A stretch of DNA of 64,000 nucleotides, taken from positions 44,826,001-44,890,000 of the forward strand of contig NC_042999.1 of NCBI RefSeq assembly GCF_006345805.1. The letters run 5' to 3'. The first letter of the stretch is position 1; every line of letters starts with the position of its first letter. Source of the DNA: Octopus sinensis. Its lineage: Eukaryota. Under the pieces are notes generated by a model that had not been told where the DNA came from, made no database searches, and saw nothing but the letters and a program-made list of their open reading frames with translations. The position numbers and the translations under genes are program-made. This document shows positions 2,735-59,444 of this stretch, in pieces.

Positions 2735-3890
2735 GGGATCTCAGGGAGTAGTGTCCCTGCCTTCCTGAGCTAGTTTTCCACCACAAATCATGGTAGAGGC
2801 CTTGGTCTCAGGACCACTTATGTCTAGAAACTGAGGTTGCAGGTAAGCAAGGGCATGCTCCTCATAGAAAATCCAGCTTTGAAAAAGCCTCATGATAAAA
2901 GCAAAGGAGAATGGGCACCAGCAATCCCAAACGCTGGGGTGGGCTGCATCTGCCTATGTAAAAAAGGAAGGTGCAAACCCTCATCCTGGGTTGCACAAGC
3001 ATGACTTGCCTTATGATGGCCATCAGAGAAGCTTGGGGTGAGGTTGGGAAGTTGGAATGTGGGAAGCCTATGTGGAAGGGGAACTGAGGTGTGTGAGGAA
3101 TTAAGGAAGAGGAGGGTGGATGTGTGCTGTGTGCAGGAGGTTAGGTGGAGGGGTCAGGGTGAAAGATTTGTGGGGTCAAGGGAAGAAGGTACAAGTTGTG
3201 TGGTTGGGAAATAGTAGGGGGACTGGAGGTGTGGGAGTTTTGGTGAAGGAAGAAATCTGTGAGAAGGTGGTGGCAGTCAGGAGAAAGAGTGACAGAATGA
3301 TGACAATAGTGTTAGCTTTTGAGGTAGAAGTGGTGAGGGTGATTTGTGGGTATGGTCCACAAAATGGAAGAGGGATCATTGAGAAAGAGCAGTTTTTTGA
3401 TGAAATAGTGGATGAGTGGGACTTACAAAAGGTAGATGAATTGATTTGGGGTATGGAAGATTTTAATGGACATGTTGGGAAATGGATCCAGGGCTTTGAG
3501 GGTGTGCGTGGGGGAAATGGAATTGGGAAGAGAAATTTGGAAGGAAGGATGCTGTTGGAGCTTTGTGGTGAGAAAGAGTTGTGTGTGGCAAATACGTGGT
3601 TTAGGGAAACAGAGAAAAGGAAGGTGACTTTCAATGCAGGAGGGAATGAGACAGAGATTAATTTCGTGTTGGTTGACTGGAAAAACAGAAAATATCTAAG
3701 AGATGTGAAGACAATACCAAGGGGAGTTGCAGCACAGGTTGGTGGCTGCTGGCTTGGATAAGAAGAAAGTTAAAAAGTGAGTGAGAAAGGTGTGGAAAGT
3801 GAAGGAAGAAGAAACAAAAGCAAGGTTTGAGGAGAGAGTTGGGGAGTTGGTAAGCATTGATGCACCTGATTTGTATACACAGGTAAATGA
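2735..3890 (+). mobile_element. RTE-clade LINE, 5' region plus decayed AP endonuclease
   Basis: Frameshifted GSWNVGSL, QEVRWRG, GGVGVLV, GYGPQ, DFNGHVG, ANTWF motifs (ORF 3120-3761). Confidence 0.85.
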
Positions 3891-5768: not shown

Positions 5769-5839
<71 letters not shown>

Positions 5840-5987
5840 CAGGTGCAGAAGAGCTTGCTTACCAACTACATGGTTCCTGGTTCAGTCCCACTGTGTGGAA
5901 CCTTGGGCAAGTGTTTTCTACCATAGGCTTGGGCCGACCAAAGCCTTGGAGTGGATTTGGTAGACGGAAACTGAAAGAAGCCAGTCA

Positions 5988-7378
5988 TACTGCCAGTGTC
6001 ATTCCTCTGTTCAAAAAGGGCGACCGCACATCACCTGTCAACTATCGCCCAGTCAGTCTCACTAGCTGTATTGCAAAACTGATGGAATCGTGTGTCAGAG
6101 AAACACTCTGGAACTTCTGGAGCTCTCACAGTCTCATCCGACCCTCACAATATGGATTTGTCCCTAACTCCAGCTGCAGTGACCAGCTTGTCGAGTTCCT
6201 TGAGGACATTACTCAGATTACTGACAGTGGCTCATGGGTGGATGTTGTCTACCTTGACTTTGCTAAGGCTTTCAACTCTGTGCCACACAAAAGGCTTATG
6301 GTGAAACTCTCTGCAATGGGTGTGGGGGATGACCTTTTTAACTGGTTGAAATCCTTCATCCTCAGCCGAAAGGAGGTAGTCACAGTTCTAGGACAGCACT
6401 CTACACCATATGAGATGTCATCGGGTGTACCACAGGGATCTGTCCTTGGTCCCCTCTTGTTTGTGGCATACATTAACGACATAGATGCCATTTAAAGAAT
6501 GCCACAGTATTGAAATATGCAGACGACATCAAGCTGTACCTTGAAATCAAAGGAGGACAGATCCTGATGTCTACAACTCTTTCCTGCAATCAGACCTAGA
6601 CACAATGCAGCAATGGATCACAGACTGGCAACTGAAACTGGCTGTGGACAAGTGTACCACCATGCATTTTGGGAGAAAAAACCCTGCGTTCACTTACTCC
6701 CTCCACAACACTGATATCAAGAAATCCTCTTGCAAGCGTGACCTAGGCATCACTGTCAGCAGTGATTTGCGTTGGTCAAAGCATATCTCTAAGATTGTCA
6801 GGAAGGCCGAGGGTGTCTTGGCATCACTCAGCAGGTCTTTTGTTAGCCGCTCTCCAGCCATCTATTTAAAACTGTATACAGCTATGGTACAACCACACTT
6901 GGAATTCGCATCATCAGTTTGGAACCCCTATCTTGCACAGAACATTGACCTCCTGGAATCTGTCCAGAGACGTGCAACCAAACGCATACCCTCCATCAGA
7001 CACCTACCATATTCTGAGCGCCTTGTTTCCCTGGGCATGGATTCACTGAAGCTCCGGCGTTTGGCGACGGACTTGGTAAACACCCACAAAGTTATCAACC
7101 ACCTCACCAACAACAACACTGAACACCTTTTTGATCTCCATGTGTCTAACACACGTGGACATGCCTACAAGTCAGAAAACAATACAGCTCCCATGACTTT
7201 CGGAAACATTTTTTCATGCTCAGAGTTGCTGAAGCATGGAATAAACTGCCTGCGTCAGTTGTTGACTGCCATGACACTGCATCTTTTAAGGCCCTCATGC
7301 TTTCCGAAATCCGCCGAAACTACACCTGATTATATATACACTTTAGATGAGTTGTAGTGCACCTGAGCACTGTACACA

Positions 7379-7413: not shown

Positions 7414-7704
7414 GTATATATATCATCATCATCATCATCATCGTTTAACGTCTGTTCTCCATGCTAGCATGGGTTGGACGGTTCGACCGGAGATCTGGGA
7501 AGCCAGAAGGCTGCACCAGGCTCTGATGGACGGTTCGACTGGGGATCTGGGAAGCCAGAAGGCTGCACCAGGCTCTGGTCTTATCAGAGCCTGGTGCAGC
7601 CTTCTGGCTTCCCAGATCCCCGGTCGAACCATCCAACCCATGCTAGCATGGAAAACGGACGTTAAGCGATGATGATGATGATGATGATATATATACATAT
7701 ATAT
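7405..7704. repeat. Palindrome of RTE 3' ends (arms ~7405-7527 / ~7583-7704) with a directly duplicated spacer
   Basis: (cat)n-gtttaacgtc...ggctctgat and its reverse complement, including flanking TA/TG bases; spacer repeats ggacggttcgac...caccaggctctg. Confidence 0.9.
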
Positions 7705-14964: not shown

Positions 14965-15860
14965 GTGATAAGTAGCTTGCTTACCAACCACATGGTTCCA
15001 GGTTCAGTCCCACAGTGGGGTACCTTGGGCAAGTGTTTTCTACTATAGCCTCATACCAACCAAAGCCTTGTGAGTGGATTTGGTAGATGGAAACTGAAAA
15101 GAAGCCCGTTGTATATATGTATATATATGTGTATATATCCACAAATATAAGAGAGTGTCCACTATATGGTCGACTCTTGCGCTAAAAATAGATCCGCTAT
15201 GGTCTCAACCACCAAGAATTGTTTCCAAGGAGAATTAGCACAACTATGAGTGTAAACGAGCAGGACAAATGAAAAATAACATAAATGTAGATTAATTTTA
15301 GACAATTGTTTCACTATTAATGAATTATGCAATTTTACTTACATAATATATCCATAGCTCATCAGTAGAATTTGTCTTGGGTACAATTTACTAAACCGCA
15401 CGCCAAATTTTAACACAACGTCAAACACACGTGTGGTTTAGTCAATTATATTCGCAGTTATGATTCGAATGTCCTCGCTATAGCGTGCCAAAAATCCCGG
15501 AAACAAATACTGCATAAAACCCTGGTTTTTTATGCGCTAAGTCACTTGGTGTTAAATTGATGGTATTATTAAATTAATATCCAATTTTTTCACCCTTATT
15601 TTTGATATATGTGTATATATATATATATATATATAAGTATGCTTATGTTTGTGTGTCTGTGTTTGTCCCCCCAACATCACTTGACAACCAATGCTGGTGT
15701 GCTTACATCCCCATAACTTAGCGGTTCGGCAAAAGAGACCGATAGAATAAGTACTAGGCTTACAAAGAATAAGTCCTGGGGTTGATTTGCTCGACTTAAA
15801 GGCAATGCTCCAGCATGGCCGCAATGAAATGACTGAAACAAGTAAAAGAGTAAAAGAGTA
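14965..15860 (+). mobile_element. SINE A interrupted in its microsatellite by a PLE-like cassette (~15137-15605, -)
   Basis: 5' half 14965-15115 and 3' half 15640-15860; the insert carries a hammerhead. Confidence 0.8.
15294..15372 (-). ncRNA. Type-I hammerhead ribozyme motif, intact core
   Basis: Minus strand: aattcta-CTGATGA-gctat...atagt-GAAA-caattg-TC-taaaatt; palindromic stem III ACAATTGT, GUC triplet. Confidence 0.85.
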
Positions 15861-18486: not shown

Positions 18487-21400
18487 TCATCATCATCATC
18501 GCTTTCCATGCTAGCATGGGTTGGATGGTTCAACTGGGGTCTGGGAAGCCAGAAGGCTGCACCAGGCCCAGTTTGATCTGGCAATGTTTCTACAGCTGGA
18601 TGCCCTTCCTAACGCCAACCACTCCATGAGTGTAGTGGGTGCTTTTTACGTGCCACCGGCACAGGTGCCAGACGAATCTGGCAACGGCCACGAATGGATG
18701 GTGCTTTTTACGTGCCACTGGCCCGAAGCCAATTGGGGCGGCGCTGGCAATGGTCACGAACGGGTGGTGCTTTTTACGTGCCACCTGCACGAGGCCAGTC
18801 GGGGTGACGCTGGCAATGGCCACGTTCGGATGGTTCTTACGTTCCACCGGCACTGGTAACTCAGCTACAATTTCCATTGATCGATTTCGATTCTGATTCT
18901 GATTCTCACTTGCCTCAACAGGTCTTCACAAGTAGAGTTTTGTGTCCCAAGAAGGGAAGGTATGCATAAGTGGGCTGGCTACATCCCATGTAGAAGGCCA
19001 CGGGTTATGGTCTCACTTGTCCTGCCAGGTCTGCTCACGCACAGCATACTTCCAGAGGTCTCGGTCTCTAGTCATTTCCTCAGTGAGACCTAAAGTTTGA
19101 AGGTCGTGCTTCACCACCTCATCCCAGGTTTTCCTGGGTCTGCCTCTTCCACAGGTTCCCTCAACCGCTAGGGTGTGGCACTTTTTCACACAACTATCTT
19201 CATCCATTCTCGCCACATGCCCATACCAGTGCAAACATCTCTCTTGCACACCACATCTGATGCTTCTTAGGTCCAGCTTTTCTCTCAAGGTACTTACACT
19301 CGGAGCATACTGGCTTCATTTCTTGCGAGCTTACGCATATCCTCAGCAGTCACGGCCCATGTTTCACTGCCATGTAGCATGGCTGTTCGTACACACGCGT
19401 CATACAGTCTGCCTTTTACTCTGAGCGAGAGGCCTTTTGTCACCAGCAGAGGTAAGAGCTCTCTGAACTTTGCCCAAGCTATTCTTACTCTAGCAGTTAC
19501 ACTTTCAGCACACCCGCCCCCGCTGCTGACTTGGTCACCTAGGTAACGGAAGCTATCAACTATTTCTAGTTTTTCTCCCTGGAAAGTGACAGAAGTTGGT
19601 CTCAGAGCATTTTCAGTGTTTATTGTTTCTGAGCATCTGCCAAATACAAAAACCAACTTCCTAGTTAGCCTTCCTTTGACATTGCTGCACCTCTTATGTG
19701 TCCATATCTTACACTTGGTGCATCTTATAGAGTTTCTACCTACACCTTTTCTACAGATCGAGCAGGGCCATCTACCTGAAGGCGTTTGTGATTTGTCTAC
19801 CTTCCTACTTATTAGGACTTTGGTTTTAGCCAGATTGACTCTAAGGCCATTCAATTCTAATCCTTGCTTCCACACCTGAAACTTCTCCTCCAGTTCTGAT
19901 AGCGACTCAGCAATTAGAGCAAGGTCATCAGCATAGAGGAACTCCCAGGGGCATCCTGTCTTGAATTCCTCCGTTATTGCCTGGAGGACTATGGTAAATA
20001 GGAGGGGGCTGAGGACTGAGCCTTGGTGGACCCCTACCTCTACCCGAAATTCTTCACTGCACTCGTTGCCAACCCTCACCTTACTAGCAGCGTCTCTGTA
20101 CATGGCTCGCACAGCTCTCACTAACCATTCATCTATTCATAGTTTCCTCATTGACCACCAGATAAGGGATCGGGGGACCCTGTCAAAGGCTTTCTCCATG
20201 TCAACAAAAGCCAGGTACAGGGGCTTATCTTTGGCTAGGTATTTCTCCTGCAGCTGCCTTACCAGGAATATAGCATCAGTGGTACTTTTCCCTGGCACGA
20301 ACCCAAACTGCATCTCATCTAAACTAACTCTCTCTCTAATTAGTTGGGCTATGACCCTCTCCATAACCTTCATCACCTGATCCAACAGCTTGATACCTCT
20401 GTAATTATTTGTATCTAGGGCGTCACCTTTACCTTTGTAGCAGTTGACTATTATGCTGCTACACCAGTCATTGGGTATGACTCCTTCGTGTATCACCTGA
20501 TTAACTATACGGGTGACTAGGCTATAACCAACACTACCAGATATTTTGAGCATCTCTGCAGTGATTCCTGATGGGCCTGGGGCTTTCCCTGTCTTCATGC
20601 TTCTAATTGCCTTAACTACCAAGGAACTGTCAACTTGGTTAGCTGGTCCCTCTGTTGGGTCAACGTTTGGCAGACTCTCTTTATCCCATTCATTTTCTTT
20701 ATTCAGCAACATTTCATAGTGGCATCTCCAAACCTCTCTCTTTGCATCCTCATTTAGCGCAAGTGAACCATCTTCCATGTGAACACACTTCTCTCCTACC
20801 ACATCACAATTCTCTCTCACACACTGTCTTGCAACGCGAAACACCTCCAGTCTTTGGTCCTCACGGTGCAGAACATTGGCAAATTTTTTCTTATCTGCTT
20901 CCCCTCTGGCTAGATAGATCTGTCTCCTAGCTTCCCTTTTGGCAGTCTGATACAATTCCCTGCTACCACCATTCTTCCAGTCCTTCCAAGTCTGTCTCTT
21001 TTCTCTAATAGCCCTGTCTACAACACTGTTCCACCACCACGTTACCTTGGGACGAGAGGGGACTTTGCACCAGCCACAGATCTGGTCAGTGGCTCTCAGC
21101 AGGTTGTCCCTTAGAAACGTCCAGTTGCCTTCTACCCCATGTGATACTCTATCCCCTTCTACTTCGTCAAAGGCTTCAAGTAGCGTGTCCCTAAATCTCT
21201 GTCCATTCGCAGGATCTTTAAGCTTCCAGATCCTTCTTCTCCATGCTGGTCGTCTTCTGGTTGTCCTCCTAGTCCTGATCCTAAAGTCACTAACTACCAG
21301 TCTATGTCGTGGGGTACATTCTTCGCCTGGGAAGGTTTTGGCATTTATAAGCAGCCATCTCTCCCTTTGCCTGGCAAGGATGTAGTCAATTTGGCTGGTA

Positions 21401-22215
21401 TGTTGGCCCGATTGGTAGGTGACTAGGTGGCTGGTAGGTTTCCTGAAGTTAGTGTTGCAAATCATAAGATTATTTGCATCACAGAACTCCAGCAGCTTGG
21501 TCCCCTCCTCGTTGCAGGAACCATAGCCATAGCCTCCATGTACAGCATGGAAGCCCCCAGCATGTCGTCCAACGTGACCATTGAAGTCACCAGCCACAAA
21601 GAGAAGGTCTCTGTCGTTCGTCAACGAGGTAGTCTGCAGTAGAGTGTCATAGAATTGGTCTTTCTGTCCATCGGGTAGCCCCAACTGAGGAGCATAGGCC
21701 GATATAATGGTTGCTAAACTATGATGAAGCACTAATCTAATCTTAAGTATTCTGTCACATACTCTGATTACCTCAATTACTTTATCTACCCATTTCTCAG
21801 CGATAAGTATACCCACGCCACCAACTCTGTCAGTGTTCCCTGCCCAGAAAATCTTGTACCTGTGTTCCTTGCCTGTGAGGAACCTAGCAGATCCTCCTCT
21901 CCACCTTACTTCTTGCATGCAACATATATCCACACATCTCCATTCAAGCATCTCGACTATCTCACCAGACCTACCTTTCAGTGTGCCAACGTTGAGGGTG
22001 CCAACCCTGAGGGTGCCAACCCTGAGGGTGTGGGACAGTGGACAGTAGCTTCATGTACCTGAAAAGAAAGCTCGCATTTGGCAGAATTCATGTGCAAGTA
22101 ATACAGTAGCCTTCAGTTCAACCTGCATAACACTAGCCTTTCATATTTTGCACTGTATGAACATTACCTTACACAGGTCGAGACTAGGGATAGGGATGGT
22201 GAAAGAGCATTTGCA
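18487..22215 (-). mobile_element. Near-full-length RTE-clade LINE, (GAT)n tail, inserted in (TA)n
   Basis: Continuous APE-RT-C-terminal coding plus ~520-nt 3' UTR; the 5' boundary is approximate. Confidence 0.95.
19013..22054 (-). pseudogene. RTE ORF (APE + RT + PHD-like Cys/His finger), broken by frameshifts near 22040, 20125 and 19290
   Basis: TLNVGTL, QEVRWRG, SAYAPQ, GDFNGHVG, QIDYIL, KAPGPSG, NYRGIKLL, FVDMEKAFDRVP, GVHQGSVLSPLLF, YADDL, GRGRPRKTW. Confidence 0.95.
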
Positions 22216-22264
22216 TATATATATATAAACACACCAGCATATAAATATATATGTGTGTGTGTGT

Positions 22265-22482
22265 ATATAGGTTTGTGTGTCTGTGTTTGTCCCCCCAACA
22301 TTGCTTGACAACCGATGCTGGTGTGTTTACGTCCCCGTAACTTAGCGGTTCAGCAAAAGTGACCAATAGAATAAGTACTAGGCTTACAAAGAATAAGTCC
22401 TGGGGTCGATTTGCTCAACTAAAGGCGGTGCTCCAGCATGGCCACAGTCAAATGACTGAAATAAGTAAAAGAGTAAAAGAGT
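22265..22482 (+). mobile_element. SINE A 3' half
   Basis: Matches the 3' half of intact copies. Confidence 0.85.
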
Positions 22483-27329: not shown

Positions 27330-27725
27330 CTTTGGCTGTGTGGTAAGTAGCTTGCTTACCAACCACATAGTCCTGGGTTCAGTCCAACTGCGTGGCACCT
27401 TGGGCAAGTGTCTTCTACTATAGCCTCAGGCCAATCAAAGCCTTGTGAGTGGATTTGGTAGATGGAAACTGAAAGAAGTCCGTTGTATATATGTATATGT
27501 ATGTCTATGTGTTTGTGTGTTAGTGTTTGTCCCCGCAACATCGCCTGACAACCAATGGTGGTGTATTTACGTCCCCGTAACTTAGTGGTTCGGCAAAAGA
27601 GACTGATAGAATAAGTAACTAGGCTTACAAAGAATAAGTCCTGGGGTCGATTTGGTCGACTAAAGGTGGTGCTTCAGCATGGCCACAGTCAAATGACTGA
27701 AACAAATAAAAGAGTAAAAGAGAGT
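27330..27725 (+). mobile_element. SINE family A, full length
   Basis: tggctgtgtgg (A box), ggttcagtcc (B box), ccttgggcaagt core, gtaaaaga tail. Confidence 0.9.
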
Positions 27726-33514: not shown

Positions 33515-33973
33515 ACATATATATGTACATATATATGAGTGTGTGTGTGTATATATATATATCAGCTCTCCCTTGAAATGCATTGAATATATTTTTTCAA
33601 GCACTTTGGCTCTTTGACTAAAGATGTCTGTATTAAACATACATAAACACACATACAACATATATACAGTTAAAAAGTTGTTTTTTATAATTATTAAATA
33701 TAAAACTATTAAAGCTATGAGCATTAACTGGAAAAAAGGACTTCCTAAAAATGTAGTGTAAGATGTTATTAATAATTTTACTGCCAGTAAGTTGTCAATA
33801 AAATTATTAATAATAGCCACTATTAATAGCATTATATATGTATATATATATATATAATGAAGGGTGAAATTAATTAATTTGGAATAATTATCAAAGCTCG
33901 CTCTGATACTGAGTTGAGTTAGTGCCTTCTAGTATCTCAAAATTCAATATATAATCATTTATGATTATAGTAT

Positions 33974-34073
33974 TCTACGCTGAAGAGAAAAGAAGTTTTG
34001 GTAAGGTAGAATTATTTAATATTTAATTCTTATGCTTTCCTAAAAACTTGATTTCGAAACGTGCGTCCGTAGA
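33974..34073 (+). ncRNA. Type-I hammerhead ribozyme motif, intact core, 69-nt stem II region, in a (TA)n-flanked cassette (~33857-34260)
   Basis: tctacg-CTGAAGA-gaaa...tttc-GAAA-cgtgcg-TC-cgtaga; predicted cleavage after C34067. Confidence 0.9.
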
Positions 34074-34582
34074 TAACTTAAAATTGTATGATAGATTGCC
34101 GTCAATTCATTCTCTCTTACCTGTTTGTGTCTGCCTTTCAATTGTTGTTTTTACTGAGATCTCCCTTTTTAGTAGAAGAAATAGCTATAACTCTTTGACT
34201 GCTATTTCTAAATTCGGTATGTGGCAAGGCAATTCGTTGCTAAACCCTTTATTGCTTAGTATATATATATATATATAAACATTACTGATGTCATAGTGAA
34301 TGTATTTGTTTTGTTCATGTGCTTATGAGCTGCAGGATAGTGCTAGGAGAAATGTCCCTTTAAGACTTTGGGTGTTAAAAAATACTGAATACCCCAAACG
34401 AAGGAGAATGATGGATGGAATGAGCAAGTTTTAAAAGTTTTTTTGATACATCAATTTACAATTGTTTCATCTAAATTTTATCTCATGAACACCAGGTTTT
34501 ATATTCAAATTACATATGTGTATATGTATGTATATATATATATTACAAACACACACACATATATATGTATGTATATATAGGT

Positions 34583-34972
34583 GTAGGAGTGGCTGTGTGG
34601 TAAGTAGTTTGCTTACGAACTACATGGTTCCGGGTTCAGTCCCACTATATGGCACCTTGAGCAAGTGTCTTCTACAATAGCCTCAGGTCAACCAAAGCCT
34701 TGTGAGTGGATTTGGAAGACAGAAACTGAAAGAAGCCTGTTGTATATATGTATATGCATATATAAGTTTGTGTGTCTGTGTTTGTCCCCCAACATCGCTT
34801 GACAACAAATGGTGGTATGTTTACGTCTCCTTAACTTAGCGGTTCAGCAAAAGAGACCAATAGAATAAATACTAGGCTTACAAGGAATAAGTCCTGGGGT
34901 CGATGTGCTCGACTAATGGCGGTGCTCCAGCATGGCCACAGTCAAATGACTGAAACAAATAAAAGAGAAAGA
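34583..34972 (+). mobile_element. SINE family A, full length
   Basis: As 27330. Confidence 0.9.
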
Positions 34973-49733: not shown

Positions 49734-49768
<35 letters not shown>

Positions 49769-49809
49769 ATATATAATCAAAATAAGCAACAAGAATATCT
49801 CCGGTAATT

Positions 49810-49893
49810 TGGTACGATTGTTTCACGCTACATCATTTTATTAAATATTGTAAATATTACAACAGTTTTAAAATGTTGAGCAATCATCAGCCA
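49810..49893 (-). ncRNA. Type-I hammerhead ribozyme motif, intact core, 59-nt stem II region
   Basis: Minus strand: tgg-CTGATGA-ttgctcaacatttta...taaaatgatgtagcgt-GAAA-caatcg-TA-cca. Confidence 0.8.
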
Positions 49894-50670
49894 TTAATAG
49901 AGGTTTCCCATTGATACATAATTTTCATATTAATTGATAACATTATAGAGAAGGTAGATATATAGACAAGAATGTTGGTGACATTGACTTTTGGACAGAT
50001 TAATCATCAAAATTTTGAAGTCACTATCAACAACATTCTTGTATAGGAATTATAAATTTGTACTCTGCAAAAGTATAGAGTAACCCTTCAGATTAATGTA
50101 AAATTGCTTCTTTTTTTATAACTGAACATAAAGACAAACATCATGAACATGTACAACAGGCTTCATATTGTTTCTATATGGGGCTACAGTAGAAGACATT
50201 TACTTAAGATGTCATGGAGTAGAATTGAACCTAAAACCATGTGGTTAGGAAGCAAACTTACCACACAGCCACACCTTTGCCTATTGTAATAACTCTGAAT
50301 GAATTAAGGTAGGTATAGTCTTGAATGAATGCAAAATGGCACATATACATTTCATTTTCTATACGAGCTTGTTATTGTTAAGGGATTGAACTATAAAATA
50401 ATTCTTCAAAGTGAGTAATTACCTGCTTAGTAAAGGAACAAAGTACCTGGCTGCAATTCATGTGATGATAGAGCTTTTAGATCTTGTGATTCATAAAAGC
50501 ATCCTCTTGCAGGAATTGTGAAGAAATGGTTAGGAAGCAATTTCAAGTATGTGGCAGTAGCTGAATGAGTGTGGGTGTCGTAAGCAAGTTTTCTTTACCT
50601 GTACACCTGTAGCACAGGTGTGGGTGAATCATTTTGTGTCAAGCTGCATATCTGAACATAATTTTCTGTG

Positions 50671-51438: not shown

Positions 51439-51779
51439 TTAAATAATTATTACTTTGAAGGTTTTAATTCCCATGCTGGCCACCTGATAAGATCGGTATT
51501 TAAATATCAATCTTATCCTTAAGTATATAAATAAATATATATATATATATTGGTGGCATGTAAAAAGCACTATGTGATCATCACCACGTCACCTTACTGG
51601 CACTTGTGCCAGTGGCATGTGAAAAAATATTCGAGTGAGGTCGTAGCCAGTGCTGCTGGACTGGCTCTTGTGCAGGTGGTACATGAAAAACACCATTTGA
51701 GTGTGGCTGTTGCCAGTACTGCCTGACTGGCCTTCATGCCACAGTCTTTGGCCTGCTGATGTTTCTGTCTCTTTGGCCT

Positions 51780-52530
51780 CACACCTTGCTTCACAAATCC
51801 TGTCTTGCACAAGCTCAGTTCAGGCACTTGACCCTCTCTTGCAGCTGAAGCAACAACCTTTAGCACTAAATTATGTCTAAATGTATACCATCCAGACTGG
51901 AGTGCATTTGGGCAAGCTGACAGCATGTGTTTGAGGCTGCCATACTTCCCGTACAAGTGGCACTGTGGACTCTCTTGGATACCCCATTTTTTGAGATTTG
52001 CTGGAGACGTATGCACATCATATGCAGTCTGGATCAGAGCTTTCAAATGCCCTGCACTGAAACACCACCAATCAGACCGCTTCAACTCAAGCTTTTTGAC
52101 ACCATCCCAATTCAGCCACCAACCCTGCTCTGCTAGTTGCACTGCATGACCCAGATGCCTCTCATCTTCCAGCTGCCTTACTTGTTGTTCATGTAGCTTC
52201 TGCTGTTCTTGTTTACTTGACTCAGACCAATACTGCTCTCTCTTGACAAGCCCCACACCAGCCCTGCCATCTATCATCACTCCACATGCTCCAGCATCCT
52301 GAGCCATCTCATCAAGCTTTTGCATCACCTCAGTGACCTTCCATTTCCTACCAGTGTTCAAATCTGGTGGATTGTCCTGGACCACAGTGTCTCTCAACTC
52401 AGACAGCATCGATTGTTGCAGACGCACCTTGGAGACCTTGTACTCCTCCACTAGTGACATCAAGGGCAACTGGAGCATACCCCGGTTGCCAAAAAGGGTG
52501 ACAGATGAAAGGCACTTCGAAAGATGAAAG
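51780..52530 (-). mobile_element. HERO-clade (R2-like, RLE) retrotransposon fragment, post-RT region through the zinc knuckle
   Basis: LQLP.MSLVEEYKVSK, TGRKWK, GRAGVG, QGWWLNW, AYDV..SPANL..WG, CHLY..YGSLKHMLSAC, YTFRHNLVL in ORF 51594-52697. Confidence 0.85.
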
Positions 52531-53525
52531 CAGAAATTCCATTTGGTTTCAATTCCAATTGAAACACCATTTACACTGGTGTACCCAGTGCAAGCTATGG
52601 ACACACAAGAGGTGCAGCGGACTAGCTGGAAGGTTAACAGAGAAAGTATTGTTTGTATGTGGAAGATGCATAGAAGCCATAAAGACCATAGATACATGGG
52701 AAACTGATTTCCTCAAATGTCCCAGAGGTTCTCTGGAAGTAGTAGATAATTTCTGCTATCTAAGTGACCTAATTAGCAGTGAAGGAGGATATACTGAAAG
52801 TGTAATTGCTAGAATAAGATGGAGAAAGTTCAGAGAGCTTTTTTCTCTGTTGGCAACCAAAGGTTTTTCTATCTAAGTGTTAAGACGAGTGTATGAAGCA
52901 TGTGTTTGAACTGCAATATTATATGGTAGAGAGACATGGGCTCAGAATGCAGAGGACATGTGAAGACGAGAGAGGAACGAATTTGGTATGCTAGACTGTG
53001 ACAGAGTATCTAGGCATAAGAGGAATGATGTGCAGTATGCAAGAGAGAAGGCTGTGATGGTTTGGTCATGTGATGCAGACAGATGAAGATAGTTGCATAA
53101 AGGAATGCTGATCACTTGAAATGGATGGAAGTTGTGGAAGAGGGAAATCCAGGAAGTCATTTGATGAAGTAGTATTGAAAGCTGACCTCAAAATGCTGAG
53201 CCCTATGAAGGAGATGACAAAGGATTGAGATATATGGTGCTTATGCTGCATTCAAGAAGGCCCATTCACCACAACAATATTGATGTCCTGATACCACAGT
53301 GCCACATGAAAAGAACTCATGTTGGTGGAACATAAAAAGCATTGGTGCTGGTGCCATCTAAAAAACATCCAGTACACTCTATGAAGTAGTCGGAGTTTGG
53401 AAGGGCAACCAGACGTCGAAACTATGCCAAAACACAGTCAGGCCTGTTGCCAGCACCTGTGAAGCCATCCAACCCATGCTAGCATAAAAAATGGACGCTA
53501 AAGGATGATAATGAAGATAATGATA
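52530..53525 (+). mobile_element. Older decayed RTE 3' portion
   Basis: CTQCKLWTHKRCSG...FVCGRC, VDNFCYLSD, WRKFREL; 3' UTR and (gat)n-like tail. Confidence 0.85.
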
Positions 53526-53575: not shown

Positions 53576-54855
53576 CGAGGGACGTTCAATAAGTAATGCT
53601 TCTGATCCACTTGCAGTTGGTTGATCTAGCTGAAATTTTGCTTGTGCAATTATTTATATCTCTATAGATTAAGTGGCAAATTACAGCTCTGAACTAATTG
53701 TAGTCTCTGATTTACAGGTGTTTGAACAGAGTCAAGTGTGAAATGGAGCCAGTTGAGTGTCGAGCAGTGATCCGGTTTTTGTATTTGAAAGGACGCACAC
53801 CACGGGAGACTTTTGATGAAATGAAAGTAACTTATGGTGATGATGCCCCATTCATATGACCTTGTAAAACGCTGGCATCGTGAATTTAAACATGGTCGGA
53901 ACTCTGTGGAAACAGCTCCCAGATCTGGTTGCCCCCTTCTGCCAATGATGAGGCATCTGTCATCAAGTTGAGGCTGCCATTTTGGAAGATCGACGCATAA
54001 CTATTTGCCAAATAGCCCATGAGGTCAAGATTAGTACCGGGTCTGTGGAAACTATCATTCATGACTATTTGCATATGCAAAAGGTGTCTGCCAGATGGAT
54101 TCCCAGGTTGCTCACACCTTTCCAGAAGCAAAAACGCGTCGAGTGCTCGAGGATGAATTTGGAGATGTGCCAAGAAGATGAGTCAAAATTTTTCAAAAGA
54201 CTGATTACACAGGATGAAACCTGGGTCCATCACTATGATTCAGAGACCAAAGCCCAGTCAATGCAGTGGAAGCACCATGACTCACCGCCTCCAAAGAAGG
54301 CAAGGGTGCAGCCCTCCGCTGGCAAGGTCATGCTCACAGTCTTCTGGGACCAGGACGGAGTAGTGTTGACAGATTTCCTGGCAAAGGGTACCACAATTAC
54401 AGGAGCCTATTATGCTTCACTTTTGAAGAAATTAAGAGAAGCTATCAAAATCAAGAGGCGGGGCAAGATCAGCAAAGGTATCCTCCTCCTGCAGGACAAC
54501 GCTCTGGCGTGTCGCCAGATCAGATGCACAGACGTGCGGCTATGAACTCCTCCCCCATCCACCCTACTCTCCTGACCTTGCACCCTCTGATTTTCACCTC
54601 TTCCCAGCCATGAAGTTGTTTTTGAAAGGAAAGCGTTTCCCAGATGATGTAGCCTTGATTTCTGAAGTCACGTCATGGTTGGAGGACCAGACTGGGGTAT
54701 TCTACAAAAACGGTCTCCAGAGCTGCATCAAACGATGGAAGAAATGCGTAACTCTGGGTGGTTCCTATGTAGAAAAAGACTAATAACTGTGCCAAGTTTT
54801 GTTGCTCTACTGCTATGGGAAGTGGGTCAGGGGCATTACTTATTGAACGCTCCTC

Positions 54856-57376: not shown

Positions 57377-57747
57377 ATGTATGCATGTAGAGAAGTAGAT
57401 AATCTCAAGCTTCAAGGATTATCTAAAGTTGACATGCCATTAAAGAAAGGGATAGGATTATTGTATAGAGATAAGAAGTCAATTGCGGATACATGTTTCT
57501 GTCTCAACAGCTGTCATCAATATATCAATAGTCTGACTTTACCTCAGGTAGCCAAGGGACTTGGAACTTACACAAGAAAGAGTAGAATGCATATATAGTG
57601 TAGGTAATTTACATCTATCTATCTGCCAGTCTGTCTGACTGTCTATCTCTCTATCTGTATACACACACACACACACACACATACACACACACACACATAA
57701 ATAAATAAATAAATGGAGTTTAATGCAGGTGTAATTCAAATTCCTTT

Positions 57748-57836
57748 ACTTCCAACACATGCTTCGAAGATATCACTGATATTATTCCAAAGAAATAAAA
57801 TAGTGTAAAACAATGTAATCTTCTCTTCATGAAAGT
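57748..57836 (-). ncRNA. Decayed hammerhead downstream of the PLE GIY-YIG coding end
   Basis: Minus strand: actttc-ATGAAGA-gaagat...atcttc-GAAG-catgtg-TT-ggaagt; stems preserved, two core substitutions. Confidence 0.65.
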
Positions 57837-58064
57837 GAAGTAATGAAACTCGTCAATAAGACATTTTAACAGAAAATGATGGATATGTATAGTGATTAAC
57901 TGAATGCTATTAATATTGTTTGAAAAAACGTTATATGATATAACGTCAGAAGTAGCCCATAGAAAGAGGAGGGATAAATTAAAGAAAAATTAAATAAATG
58001 AGAAGTATATGACTATATGTATATTAAATAAAACCTTATAAACTAGGAAAATATATATTTAGTG

Positions 58065-58067
<3 letters not shown>

Positions 58068-58098
<31 letters not shown>

Positions 58099-58194
58099 GT
58101 TTAACGTCCGTTCTCCATGCTAGCATGGGTTGGACGGTTCAACCGGGGATCTGGGAAGCCAGAAGGCTGCACCAGGATCCAGTCTTATCTGGCA
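58068..58194 (-). mobile_element. Short RTE 3'-end insertion in the left PLE arm
   Basis: Absent from the right arm; (cat)n plus RTE tail. Confidence 0.9.
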
Positions 58195-58669
58195 GTGAAA
58201 TATAAAAGAAAATTAATGTTTAAATTATATATAATGATAGAGATCGCTTATATGAACTAAAGGTGTGGCTTTGCCAATGTTTACATCGGTATGCACGCTC
58301 TATAACCGTGTTTACTAGGGGATTTTTTAGAAAGAATAATGAAAAATAGTTCAGAATTACAGAGAAGACAGAATTTCTTGCCTTTGTCATAAGGTATTGA
58401 GATTGAGAGGATCAACCAATCTAAATTAAACTGTTTATTGTGGTCTTTTAGATCCCAAATTAATTTACTGAGCCCTGTATTGTTACGTTTATTCCTATCC
58501 CTAAATGTCAAGTAATGATTAGAAATCCTTCTAGATAATTGTAAAGACGTGCTAAGTTATCTGGTAATGATTGATTGATTGATTGATTCTAGTTTCAGCT
58601 TATGAGCTGTGGCCATGCTGGGGCACCGGTTGACATTTTCTATGATAATGCCGAATTTTATAACTCTGC

Positions 58670-59093
58670 CTTACTTAAAGCATGTTATACAGAGAAAATT
58701 ATCTGCATTGATTCTACCTGGTCTTATTATTCTCATAATCAAGTATAATTTTATATTGGAAGCACGTCTTTACAATTATTTAGAAGGATTTCTAATCATT
58801 ACTCAACATTTAGGGATAGGAATAAACGTAACAGTACAGGGCTCAGTAAATGAATTTGGTATCTAAAAGACCACAATAAACAGTTTAATTTAGATTGGTT
58901 GATTCTCTCAATCTTGATACATTATAACAAAGGGAAGGAATTCTGTCTTTTCTGTAATTCTGAACTATTTTTCATTATCTTTTCTAAAAATCCCCTAGTA
59001 AACACGGTTATAGAGCGTGCATACCGATGTAAACATTGGCAAAACCACACCTTTAGTTCATATAAGCGATCTCTATCATTATATATAATTTAA
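58670..59093 (+). pseudogene. GIY-YIG endonuclease C-terminus of a Penelope-like element
   Basis: FYIGSTS..RRISNHYSTFRDRNKRNSTGLSK*IWYLKD..FNLDWLIL..FCLFCNSE..YRCKH. Confidence 0.85.
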
Positions 59094-59444
59094 ACATTAA
59101 TTTTCTTTTTATATTTCACATTCACTAAATATATATTTTCCTAGTATATAAGGTTTTATTTAATATACATATAGTCATATACTTCTCATTTATTTAGTTT
59201 TTCTTTAATTTATCCCTCCTCTTTCTATGGGCTACTTCTGACGTTATATCATATAACGTTTTTTCAAACAATATTAATAGCATTTGGTTAATCACTATAC
59301 ATATCCATCATTATATACACTATAGTATAAAGATACTTTTGTCTAAACTTACTTTTGGCTTATAACTATTTTGTCTATAGAATCTCACAAAAAAATGTTA
59401 AAGATCTAAATAACTATACTCTAATAATCCTTTTTGTCTTTAGA

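Follow-up and report, generated by a model that had tools for sequence, protein, structure and literature searches.

Non-LTR retrozymes of metazoans are described, in the portions of the literature drawn on here, as non-coding tandem repeats of low GC content that carry one type I hammerhead ribozyme per unit, are predicted to form highly self-paired RNA circles, and co-occur with Penelope-like elements (PLEs) (PMC7229834; bioRxiv 10.64898/2026.07.22.740005). Units of approximately 170-400 nt were reported for invertebrate retrozymes (Cervera and de la Pena 2020, PMC7229834), a range of 51-972 bp was given in the preprint of Li, Clavereau and Pollet (2026), and stem II of these ribozymes comprises approximately 4 bp and a loop. 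The hammerheads of PLEs are likewise of type I, with a short palindromic stem III, a G10.1-C11.1 pair, and predicted dimeric action (Cervera and de la Pena 2014, PMC4209133), a stem II of 6-8 bp being called large among them. Dimer-type hammerheads have been described for both PLEs and newt (PMC4209133, PMC6765202, PMC3088659). Insertions of PLEs, including the anole Poseidon element, comprise partial tandems and inversions in AT-rich targets; the anole PLE extends both target strands, and two RT start sites define its tail (Frangieh 2024, PMC11167929). Tails, inversions, and (TA)n targets have similarly been listed as PLE features (PMC8557442). Non-autonomous Chlamys elements, e.g. MRC1, are non-coding PLE dependants with head-to-tail multicopy insertions, and the Chlamys clade favours microsatellite targets; these elements generally share 3' sequence with an autonomous partner, and most Chlamys lack hammerheads (PMC8557442).

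A hammerhead in Octopus sinensis was compared with these systems, starting from a stretch of 64,000 nt (hereafter the window; C3:44826001-44890000 in a genome of 2.72 Gb) that was searched against its own genome. Like the retrozymes, the repeat unit that hosts this hammerhead is a non-coding, low-GC (35%) tandem repeat with one type I hammerhead per unit, shares its genome with PLEs, and was highly self-paired when folded in silico as a circle (z -6.4, 67% paired). Its length of approximately 593 bp falls within the 51-972 bp range and exceeds that of the invertebrate retrozymes. The type I fold, short palindromic stem III, G10.1-C11.1 pair, and predicted dimer are shared with PLE hammerheads, and the partial-tandem and inverted insertions, tail, and AT-rich target with PLEs and the anole element. 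Unlike PLEs, the unit has no ORF, and unlike most Chlamys it carries a hammerhead. Its stem II of 69 nt is far beyond those of either retrozymes or PLEs, and there is no extra nucleotide between A9 and G10.1. A strict (TA)n target, frequent inversions, and a rule governing the two insertion ends (below) further set it apart, being unreported for retrozymes in the relevant portions of PMC7229834 and the 2026 preprint. With a probability of roughly 0.8, we interpret the locus as a type I hammerhead within a young non-coding repeat, likely a non-autonomous PLE (non-LTR retrozyme), whose dimers are predicted to self-cleave and whose insertion into (TA)n is likely performed by a PLE enzyme acting in trans.

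The hammerhead occupies positions 33974-34073 on the forward strand, and the elements named in the initial annotation were all borne out by a sequence check. Stem I consists of 6 bp formed by 33974-33979 and 34068-34073, both strands of which were recovered in a both-strand scan, the 5' strand also in comparison with relatives. The core boxes are CUGAAGA (C3-A9) at 33980-33986, which is also placed by the Rfam alignment, and GAAA at 34056-34059 (G12 at 34056). Between them lies the 69-nt stem II (33987-34055), described previously as an interrupted hairpin of three helices; folding and comparison with relatives agree with this description: the minimum-energy fold contains all three helices. 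The hairpin is closed by G10.1-C11.1. Stem II alone folded at -14.9 kcal/mol (z -2.8), with 10 of 1000 shuffled sequences equally stable. Stem III and its loop form an 8-nt wobble palindrome at 34059-34066, with 2 bp and a 4-nt loop when folded alone and a predicted pairing with a second copy. By canonical numbering, the predicted cleavage site after C17 (34067..34068) is the one that had been proposed. The CUGANGA, GAAA, and UH core at a three-way junction open at stem I is that of a type I hammerhead, and the self-complementarity of the 8-nt stem III and loop, with two G-U pairs, marks it as dimer-type.

A scan of both strands of the window gave 33974-34073 as the one convincing match. In a strict scan it was the sole such match, and one of 300 windows simulated with an order-3 Markov model contained an equal match. 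In a local search, the full Rfam Hammerhead_1 model (RF00163, 45 positions) aligned to 33974-34073 at 21.2 bits, below the gathering cut-off of 34, with 65 nt of the long stem II falling on a 10-position stretch of the model. The hammerhead was absent among the 150 of 176 matches listed from a whole-window Rfam search. Most of the whole-window matches were microsatellites resembling miRNA models and were rejected. The motif is thus real as described, and the locus itself is ordinary.

Mapping of scored matches placed the hammerhead in a non-coding unit of approximately 593 bp that occurs as head-to-tail arrays and inverted pairs inside (TA)n tracts, with a tandem period of 592-603 bp. In the window, sequence and copy mapping delimit the insertion by (TA)n microsatellite on the left (33833-33853) and right (34262-34277). 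It comprises an inverted 41-bp piece (33854-33894, reverse strand; unit positions 55-95), the outer end of which belongs to the tail class of ends, followed by a 5'-truncated sense copy (33895-34262, forward strand; unit positions ~225-593) that ends at the main 3' end and is 98-99% identical to copies elsewhere; the insertion therefore holds a single, solo hammerhead. A second copy of the element was not found in the window, where repeat finding was swamped by microsatellites. Insertions of other long-stem-II families are located at 15187-15485 (reverse strand, core 15365), 49734-49966 (reverse strand, core 49890), 1678-2346, and 57697-57835, all more decayed than the 33974 copy.

Elsewhere in the genome, a 381-nt query returned 1,378 candidates, of which 40 were scored to give 48 matches at 98-100% identity. 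An exact 19-mer spanning stem I and the first core box had 1,684 genome matches, a 22-mer just 3' of the cut had 701, of which 614 also had the upstream half-core, and the full core of the window's subfamily had 215; the reversed control of each count gave 0. The family therefore has at least 1,684 (~1,700 near-identical) copies sharing the window core. Stem III was the window's wobble palindrome in 41 of 100 listed half-core matches and a perfect palindrome in 59. Stem II measured 75-83 nt in other subfamilies and approximately 60 nt in older relatives, suggesting that the arm tolerates length change. The subfamily with a 75-nt stem II forms arrays of approximately 12 units at C1:70560472-70567150 (genome G000) and C1:95522477-95534861, which are the best natural substrates for cleavage tests. 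At the level of the family, the presence of one type I hammerhead in every non-coding tandem unit corresponds to a non-LTR retrozyme, the window copy being solo.

The age of the family was estimated from 149 pieces (at least 90% identity) at 52 of 68 loci, the 16 others being overlapping views of the same insertions. Copies in different insertions differed by approximately 1.4% in this sample, which leans towards close relatives of the window copy (30 loci are its best matches). The window copy differed from the commonest letter per column at 4 of approximately 350 sites, none within the ribozyme. The inference that the hammerhead is young or constrained therefore holds for its first half. Its core was not significantly less variable than the rest of the unit (2 variants in 1,137 site-copies versus 146 in 42,736, p = 0.6), and the retention of CpGs noted for the ribozyme holds outside it as well, each of the unit's 15 CpGs being kept by nearly every copy. 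Both the CpGs and the intact state are hence attributed to youth and not to constraint. On a longer time scale, compensatory changes affect 4 of 33 pairs in eight relatives, a level reached by 4 of 500 shuffles and resting on two distant relatives.

Folding predictions differed markedly between one copy and two. For the 100-nt motif, the active monomer fold lay 2.7 kcal/mol above the minimum; stem III had a probability of 0.01 in the fragment 33960-34090; and folding of the entire insertion left stems I and III at a probability of approximately 0, with competing pairing at 0.96-0.98 and the base of stem II at 0.95-0.99. The solo window copy is thus predicted to misfold and to be a poor candidate for activity alone, so that its earlier designation as the best candidate in the window stands with regard to intactness and fails with regard to its own sequence context. 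Two isolated copies co-folded as a double hammerhead (-50.8 versus 2 x -21.3 kcal/mol) with an 8-bp stem III between copies; the palindromic duplex was predicted at -8.8 kcal/mol, in keeping with a dimer-type hammerhead. In a natural 742-nt tandem stretch, the double hammerhead was the minimum-energy fold, with a between-copy stem III probability of 0.52-0.62. These models predict that the family hammerhead cuts RNA only when two copies pair. Neighbouring copies would pair via the palindromic stem III, swap stem I strands, and cut after C17, releasing unit-length RNA. The long stem II is regarded as an arm outside the core, stable and tolerant of changes in length. Being solo and truncated, the window copy would probably need a partner RNA in trans to cut, if it cuts at all. 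Rates in the literature are low: cleavage of PLE hammerhead dimers is weak (PMC4209133), the anole PLE hammerhead needs protein for cleavage and is dispensable for insertion in vitro (PMC11167929), and one of nine Xenopus retrozyme dimers cleaved (bioRxiv 10.64898/2026.07.22.740005). These rates count against the preferred reading. PLE hammerheads usually miss the tertiary contact between loops 1 and 2 that is found in fast canonical hammerheads.

Contigs from three runs, the RNA status of which was guessed, covered all 30 bins of the unit and crossed the unit-to-unit junction; genomic tandems give the same junction. Contigs in two of the runs guessed to be RNA bridged the cut site, indicating that uncut, antisense, or DNA-derived sequence is present. 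The contigs are compatible with cleavage and with its absence, and steps in their depth near the cut site were set aside because contigs do not show ends. Among runs recorded as RNA, none was listed with the unit, which argues neither way. In runs aligned to the flanks, which had very little coverage, no empty-site joint was seen. Stem II contains a splice-donor-like GGTAAG (34000-34005, forward strand) that is invariant in eight of eight relatives, and a pyrimidine tract and AG lie approximately 170 nt downstream (34150-34172, forward strand); an intron of this kind would excise the cut site. GTRAG was present in 9 of 50 other stems II versus 1-3 in control stretches. In run X8, one contig departs from the element precisely at this donor; the remainder of the contig was unmatched in the genome with one mismatch allowed, and the contig counts as a lead. 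The antisense strand from 34120 to 33980 also reads as a good 141-nt intron, with a strong donor and with a pyrimidine tract and acceptor overlapping the core box, which may be chance. A splice joint was not seen for either the sense or the antisense pair in the contigs guessed to be RNA.

The pattern of insertion ends points to PLE chemistry. The 3' ends of insertions are of two kinds: main ends, at unit position ~593, and tail ends, at 95-110. Inverted insertions account for 22 of the 52 non-redundant loci. A main end is combined with a tail end in 19 of them, and an end is truncated internally in the other 3; none combines two ends of the same class. Of the 30 insertions in one direction, 25 end at main and 5 at tail, from which independent ends would give approximately 28% mixed pairs, as compared with the 19 of 22 observed. 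The family shows 5'-truncated, partially tandem, and inverted insertions with a tail at one end, as expected of a non-autonomous PLE. The pairing of main and tail ends fits the two points of RT initiation by which the tail of a PLE is defined (PMC11167929), and the combination of tail, inversion, and (TA)n target agrees with the PLE pattern of PMC8557442. The assignment is weakened by the length of the tail, 95-110 nt, which exceeds the 30-40 bp described for PLEs (PMC4209133, PMC11167929). We propose that unit-length RNA would be circularised, or an uncut multimer used as template, that a PLE RT-endonuclease supplied in trans would nick both strands of a (TA)n tract, and that the two cDNAs would be initiated at different ends, main and tail, yielding inverted insertions like that of the window.

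The nature of the template bears on the strongest alternative, in which the element is a non-autonomous PLE whose hammerhead is catalytically marginal or serves as a landmark for folding or protein binding, with uncut multimeric transcripts of existing arrays as templates and no circle. Units within one insertion differed by 0.54% versus 1.4% between insertions; among locus-private variants, 22 were common to at least two units and 80 were confined to a single unit; of 76 shared-variant sites, 17 were mixed. A single circular template is not proven by these data, and a circular template and an uncut multimer both fit them. The heterogeneity within single insertions, the contigs (RNA status guessed) that bridge the cut site, the retention of the upstream half-core in 614 of the 701 copies, and the insertion of the anole PLE without cleavage (PMC11167929) are all consistent with a marginal hammerhead. 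The same is true of 5' truncation points, 1 of 75 of which lies within 5 nt of the cut site, but a circular template likewise predicts no accumulation there. Against this alternative, many families that are unrelated in sequence have retained core and stems (below), which implies selection on ribozyme geometry, and we consider it unlikely, though deserving of serious weight beside a retrozyme-like element with self-cleaving dimers.

To identify a helper, the genome was searched for GIY-YIG domains, yielding 5,029 candidates, of which 150 were scored. Five intact 781-aa ORFs encode RT and GIY-YIG with the cysteine linker of the Neptune type. They share 98.8-100% identity and terminate in (TA)n, in some cases with a tail; the clade name is based on motifs described in the literature and not on a tree. 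These belong to a young two-ORF Neptune-type PLE (loci L084-L088, e.g. G000:C6:12728500-12736500) that encodes 479 aa and an overlapping 781 aa and has a 3' UTR of approximately 1 kb with a U3-A8 hammerhead approximately 60 nt before its (TA)n end. This short hammerhead differs from that of the unit, and the Neptune-type PLE has no sequence in common with the unit. In contrast to the non-autonomous Chlamys elements with their shared 3' sequence, no partner homology was found for the unit, as none of approximately 55 GIY-YIG loci, with their extensions, held an autonomous element similar to it and the few matches were separate non-coding relatives. On age and target, the Neptune-type PLE is the best helper candidate, not a demonstrated partner. 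A motif, TTGGTG ... CACCCT, lies just before the tail end and is common to otherwise dissimilar non-coding families (L043, L085:6416-7497, L095:7050-7330, L121), making it a candidate RT-binding or start signal.

That the unit is instead a solo or tandem pseudo-LTR of an autonomous PLE with an unsampled coding part appears improbable. Pseudo-LTRs of PLEs do carry such hammerheads (PMC4209133), two cephalopod Naiads have half cores with the second half 35-50 nt away (PMC8557442), and the 150 scored candidates are a fraction of the 5,029. However, all 52 loci consist of unit sequence only, with each unit directly adjoining the next; a long ORF is absent from the unit and between units, leaving no trace of an RT and GIY-YIG ORF between pseudo-LTRs; and the autonomous Neptune-type elements seen carry the different, short U3-A8 hammerhead. 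A host-domesticated ribozyme acting as a monomer at 33974-34073 is far less credible still, since its perfect core, 6-bp stem I, and active fold within 2.7 kcal/mol of the minimum are set against a sequence identical to the commonest variant among sampled copies, no sign of constraint (p = 0.6), a stem III probability of at most 0.01, and flanks without cover in one run guessed to be RNA (not proof of silence).

Other features of the window include long inverted repeats at 1-472, 1693-2349, 57875-59312 (arms 92-98% complementary), and 7543-7619, which could potentially form double-stranded RNA if transcribed; that at 1693-2349 is a decayed hammerhead element. SINE-like families of 150-210 nt, with 7-9 copies each, lie beside microsatellites (e.g. 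34553-34967, 22261-22473, 27333-27533). Coding stretches at 19013-22050 (reverse), 5836-7357 (forward), 3105-3761 (forward), 51594-52712 (reverse), and 53952-54783 (reverse) are presumably LINE-like RT/endonuclease ORFs (637 and 280 aa; 219 and 270 aa; others) and a mariner-like transposase fragment.

Long-stem-II hammerheads were counted genome-wide with a pattern of hammerhead core and near-palindromic stem III, binned by stem II spacing. Core matches numbered 10,546 at 9-39 nt, 20,942 at 40-70 nt, and 4,199 at 71-101 nt, as compared with 126, 140, and 127 in controls. The two longer bins together hold 25,141 matches (controls 267), or approximately 70% of the 35,687 counted. Many matches with a short stem fall within sequence coding for a mariner-like transposase and were not accepted as ribozymes. 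Quality was judged on 50 listed matches, all from contig C1, a non-random sample in which some come from the same insertion. Stem I reached at least 4 bp in 28 of the 50, as compared with an average of 2.8 for swapped-flank controls. Closure of stem II at the core was seen in 36 and z <= -1.5 in 33; a second copy lies nearby in 19, and 25 co-folded with a between-copy stem III. These scores suggest that many long-stem-II sites are genuine and many decayed.

The published minimal descriptor allows approximately 26 nt for stem II (PMC4209133 supplement), and Craig et al. used a spacer of 7-17 nt and labelled cases of 35-50 nt, including the two cephalopod Naiads, half cores (PMC8557442); a squid genome paper reported 235 Rfam hammerheads (PMC6962438). 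As a stem II of 40-101 nt exceeds this descriptor, censuses in such genomes are likely large undercounts, and approximately 25,000 hammerhead-like sites with a long arm would likely escape standard searches. In the literature searched, which did not extend to subscription papers, Repbase, or Dfam, no description of the long-stem-II class or of these families was found, and they may be catalogued already. A broader reading is possible, though on balance doubtful: that numerous families of non-coding retrozymes parasitic on PLEs have radiated in this genome, with approximately 25,000 active long-stem-II hammerheads, circular RNA, and rolling-circle reverse transcription primed at two fixed sites, that in some families a splice donor in stem II would set splicing and cleavage as alternatives, and that the Naiad half cores would be complete hammerheads.

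The single site is ordinary; the genome-wide class of long-arm hammerheads and the main-plus-tail rule carry the interest, and they expose a blind spot of searches. The rule provides genomic evidence that PLE chemistry inserts a retrozyme-like element, a link for which earlier work relied on co-occurrence and homology. Furthermore, a young family with solo, dimer, and multimer copies, together with a young candidate helper PLE, makes the role of the PLE hammerhead directly testable.
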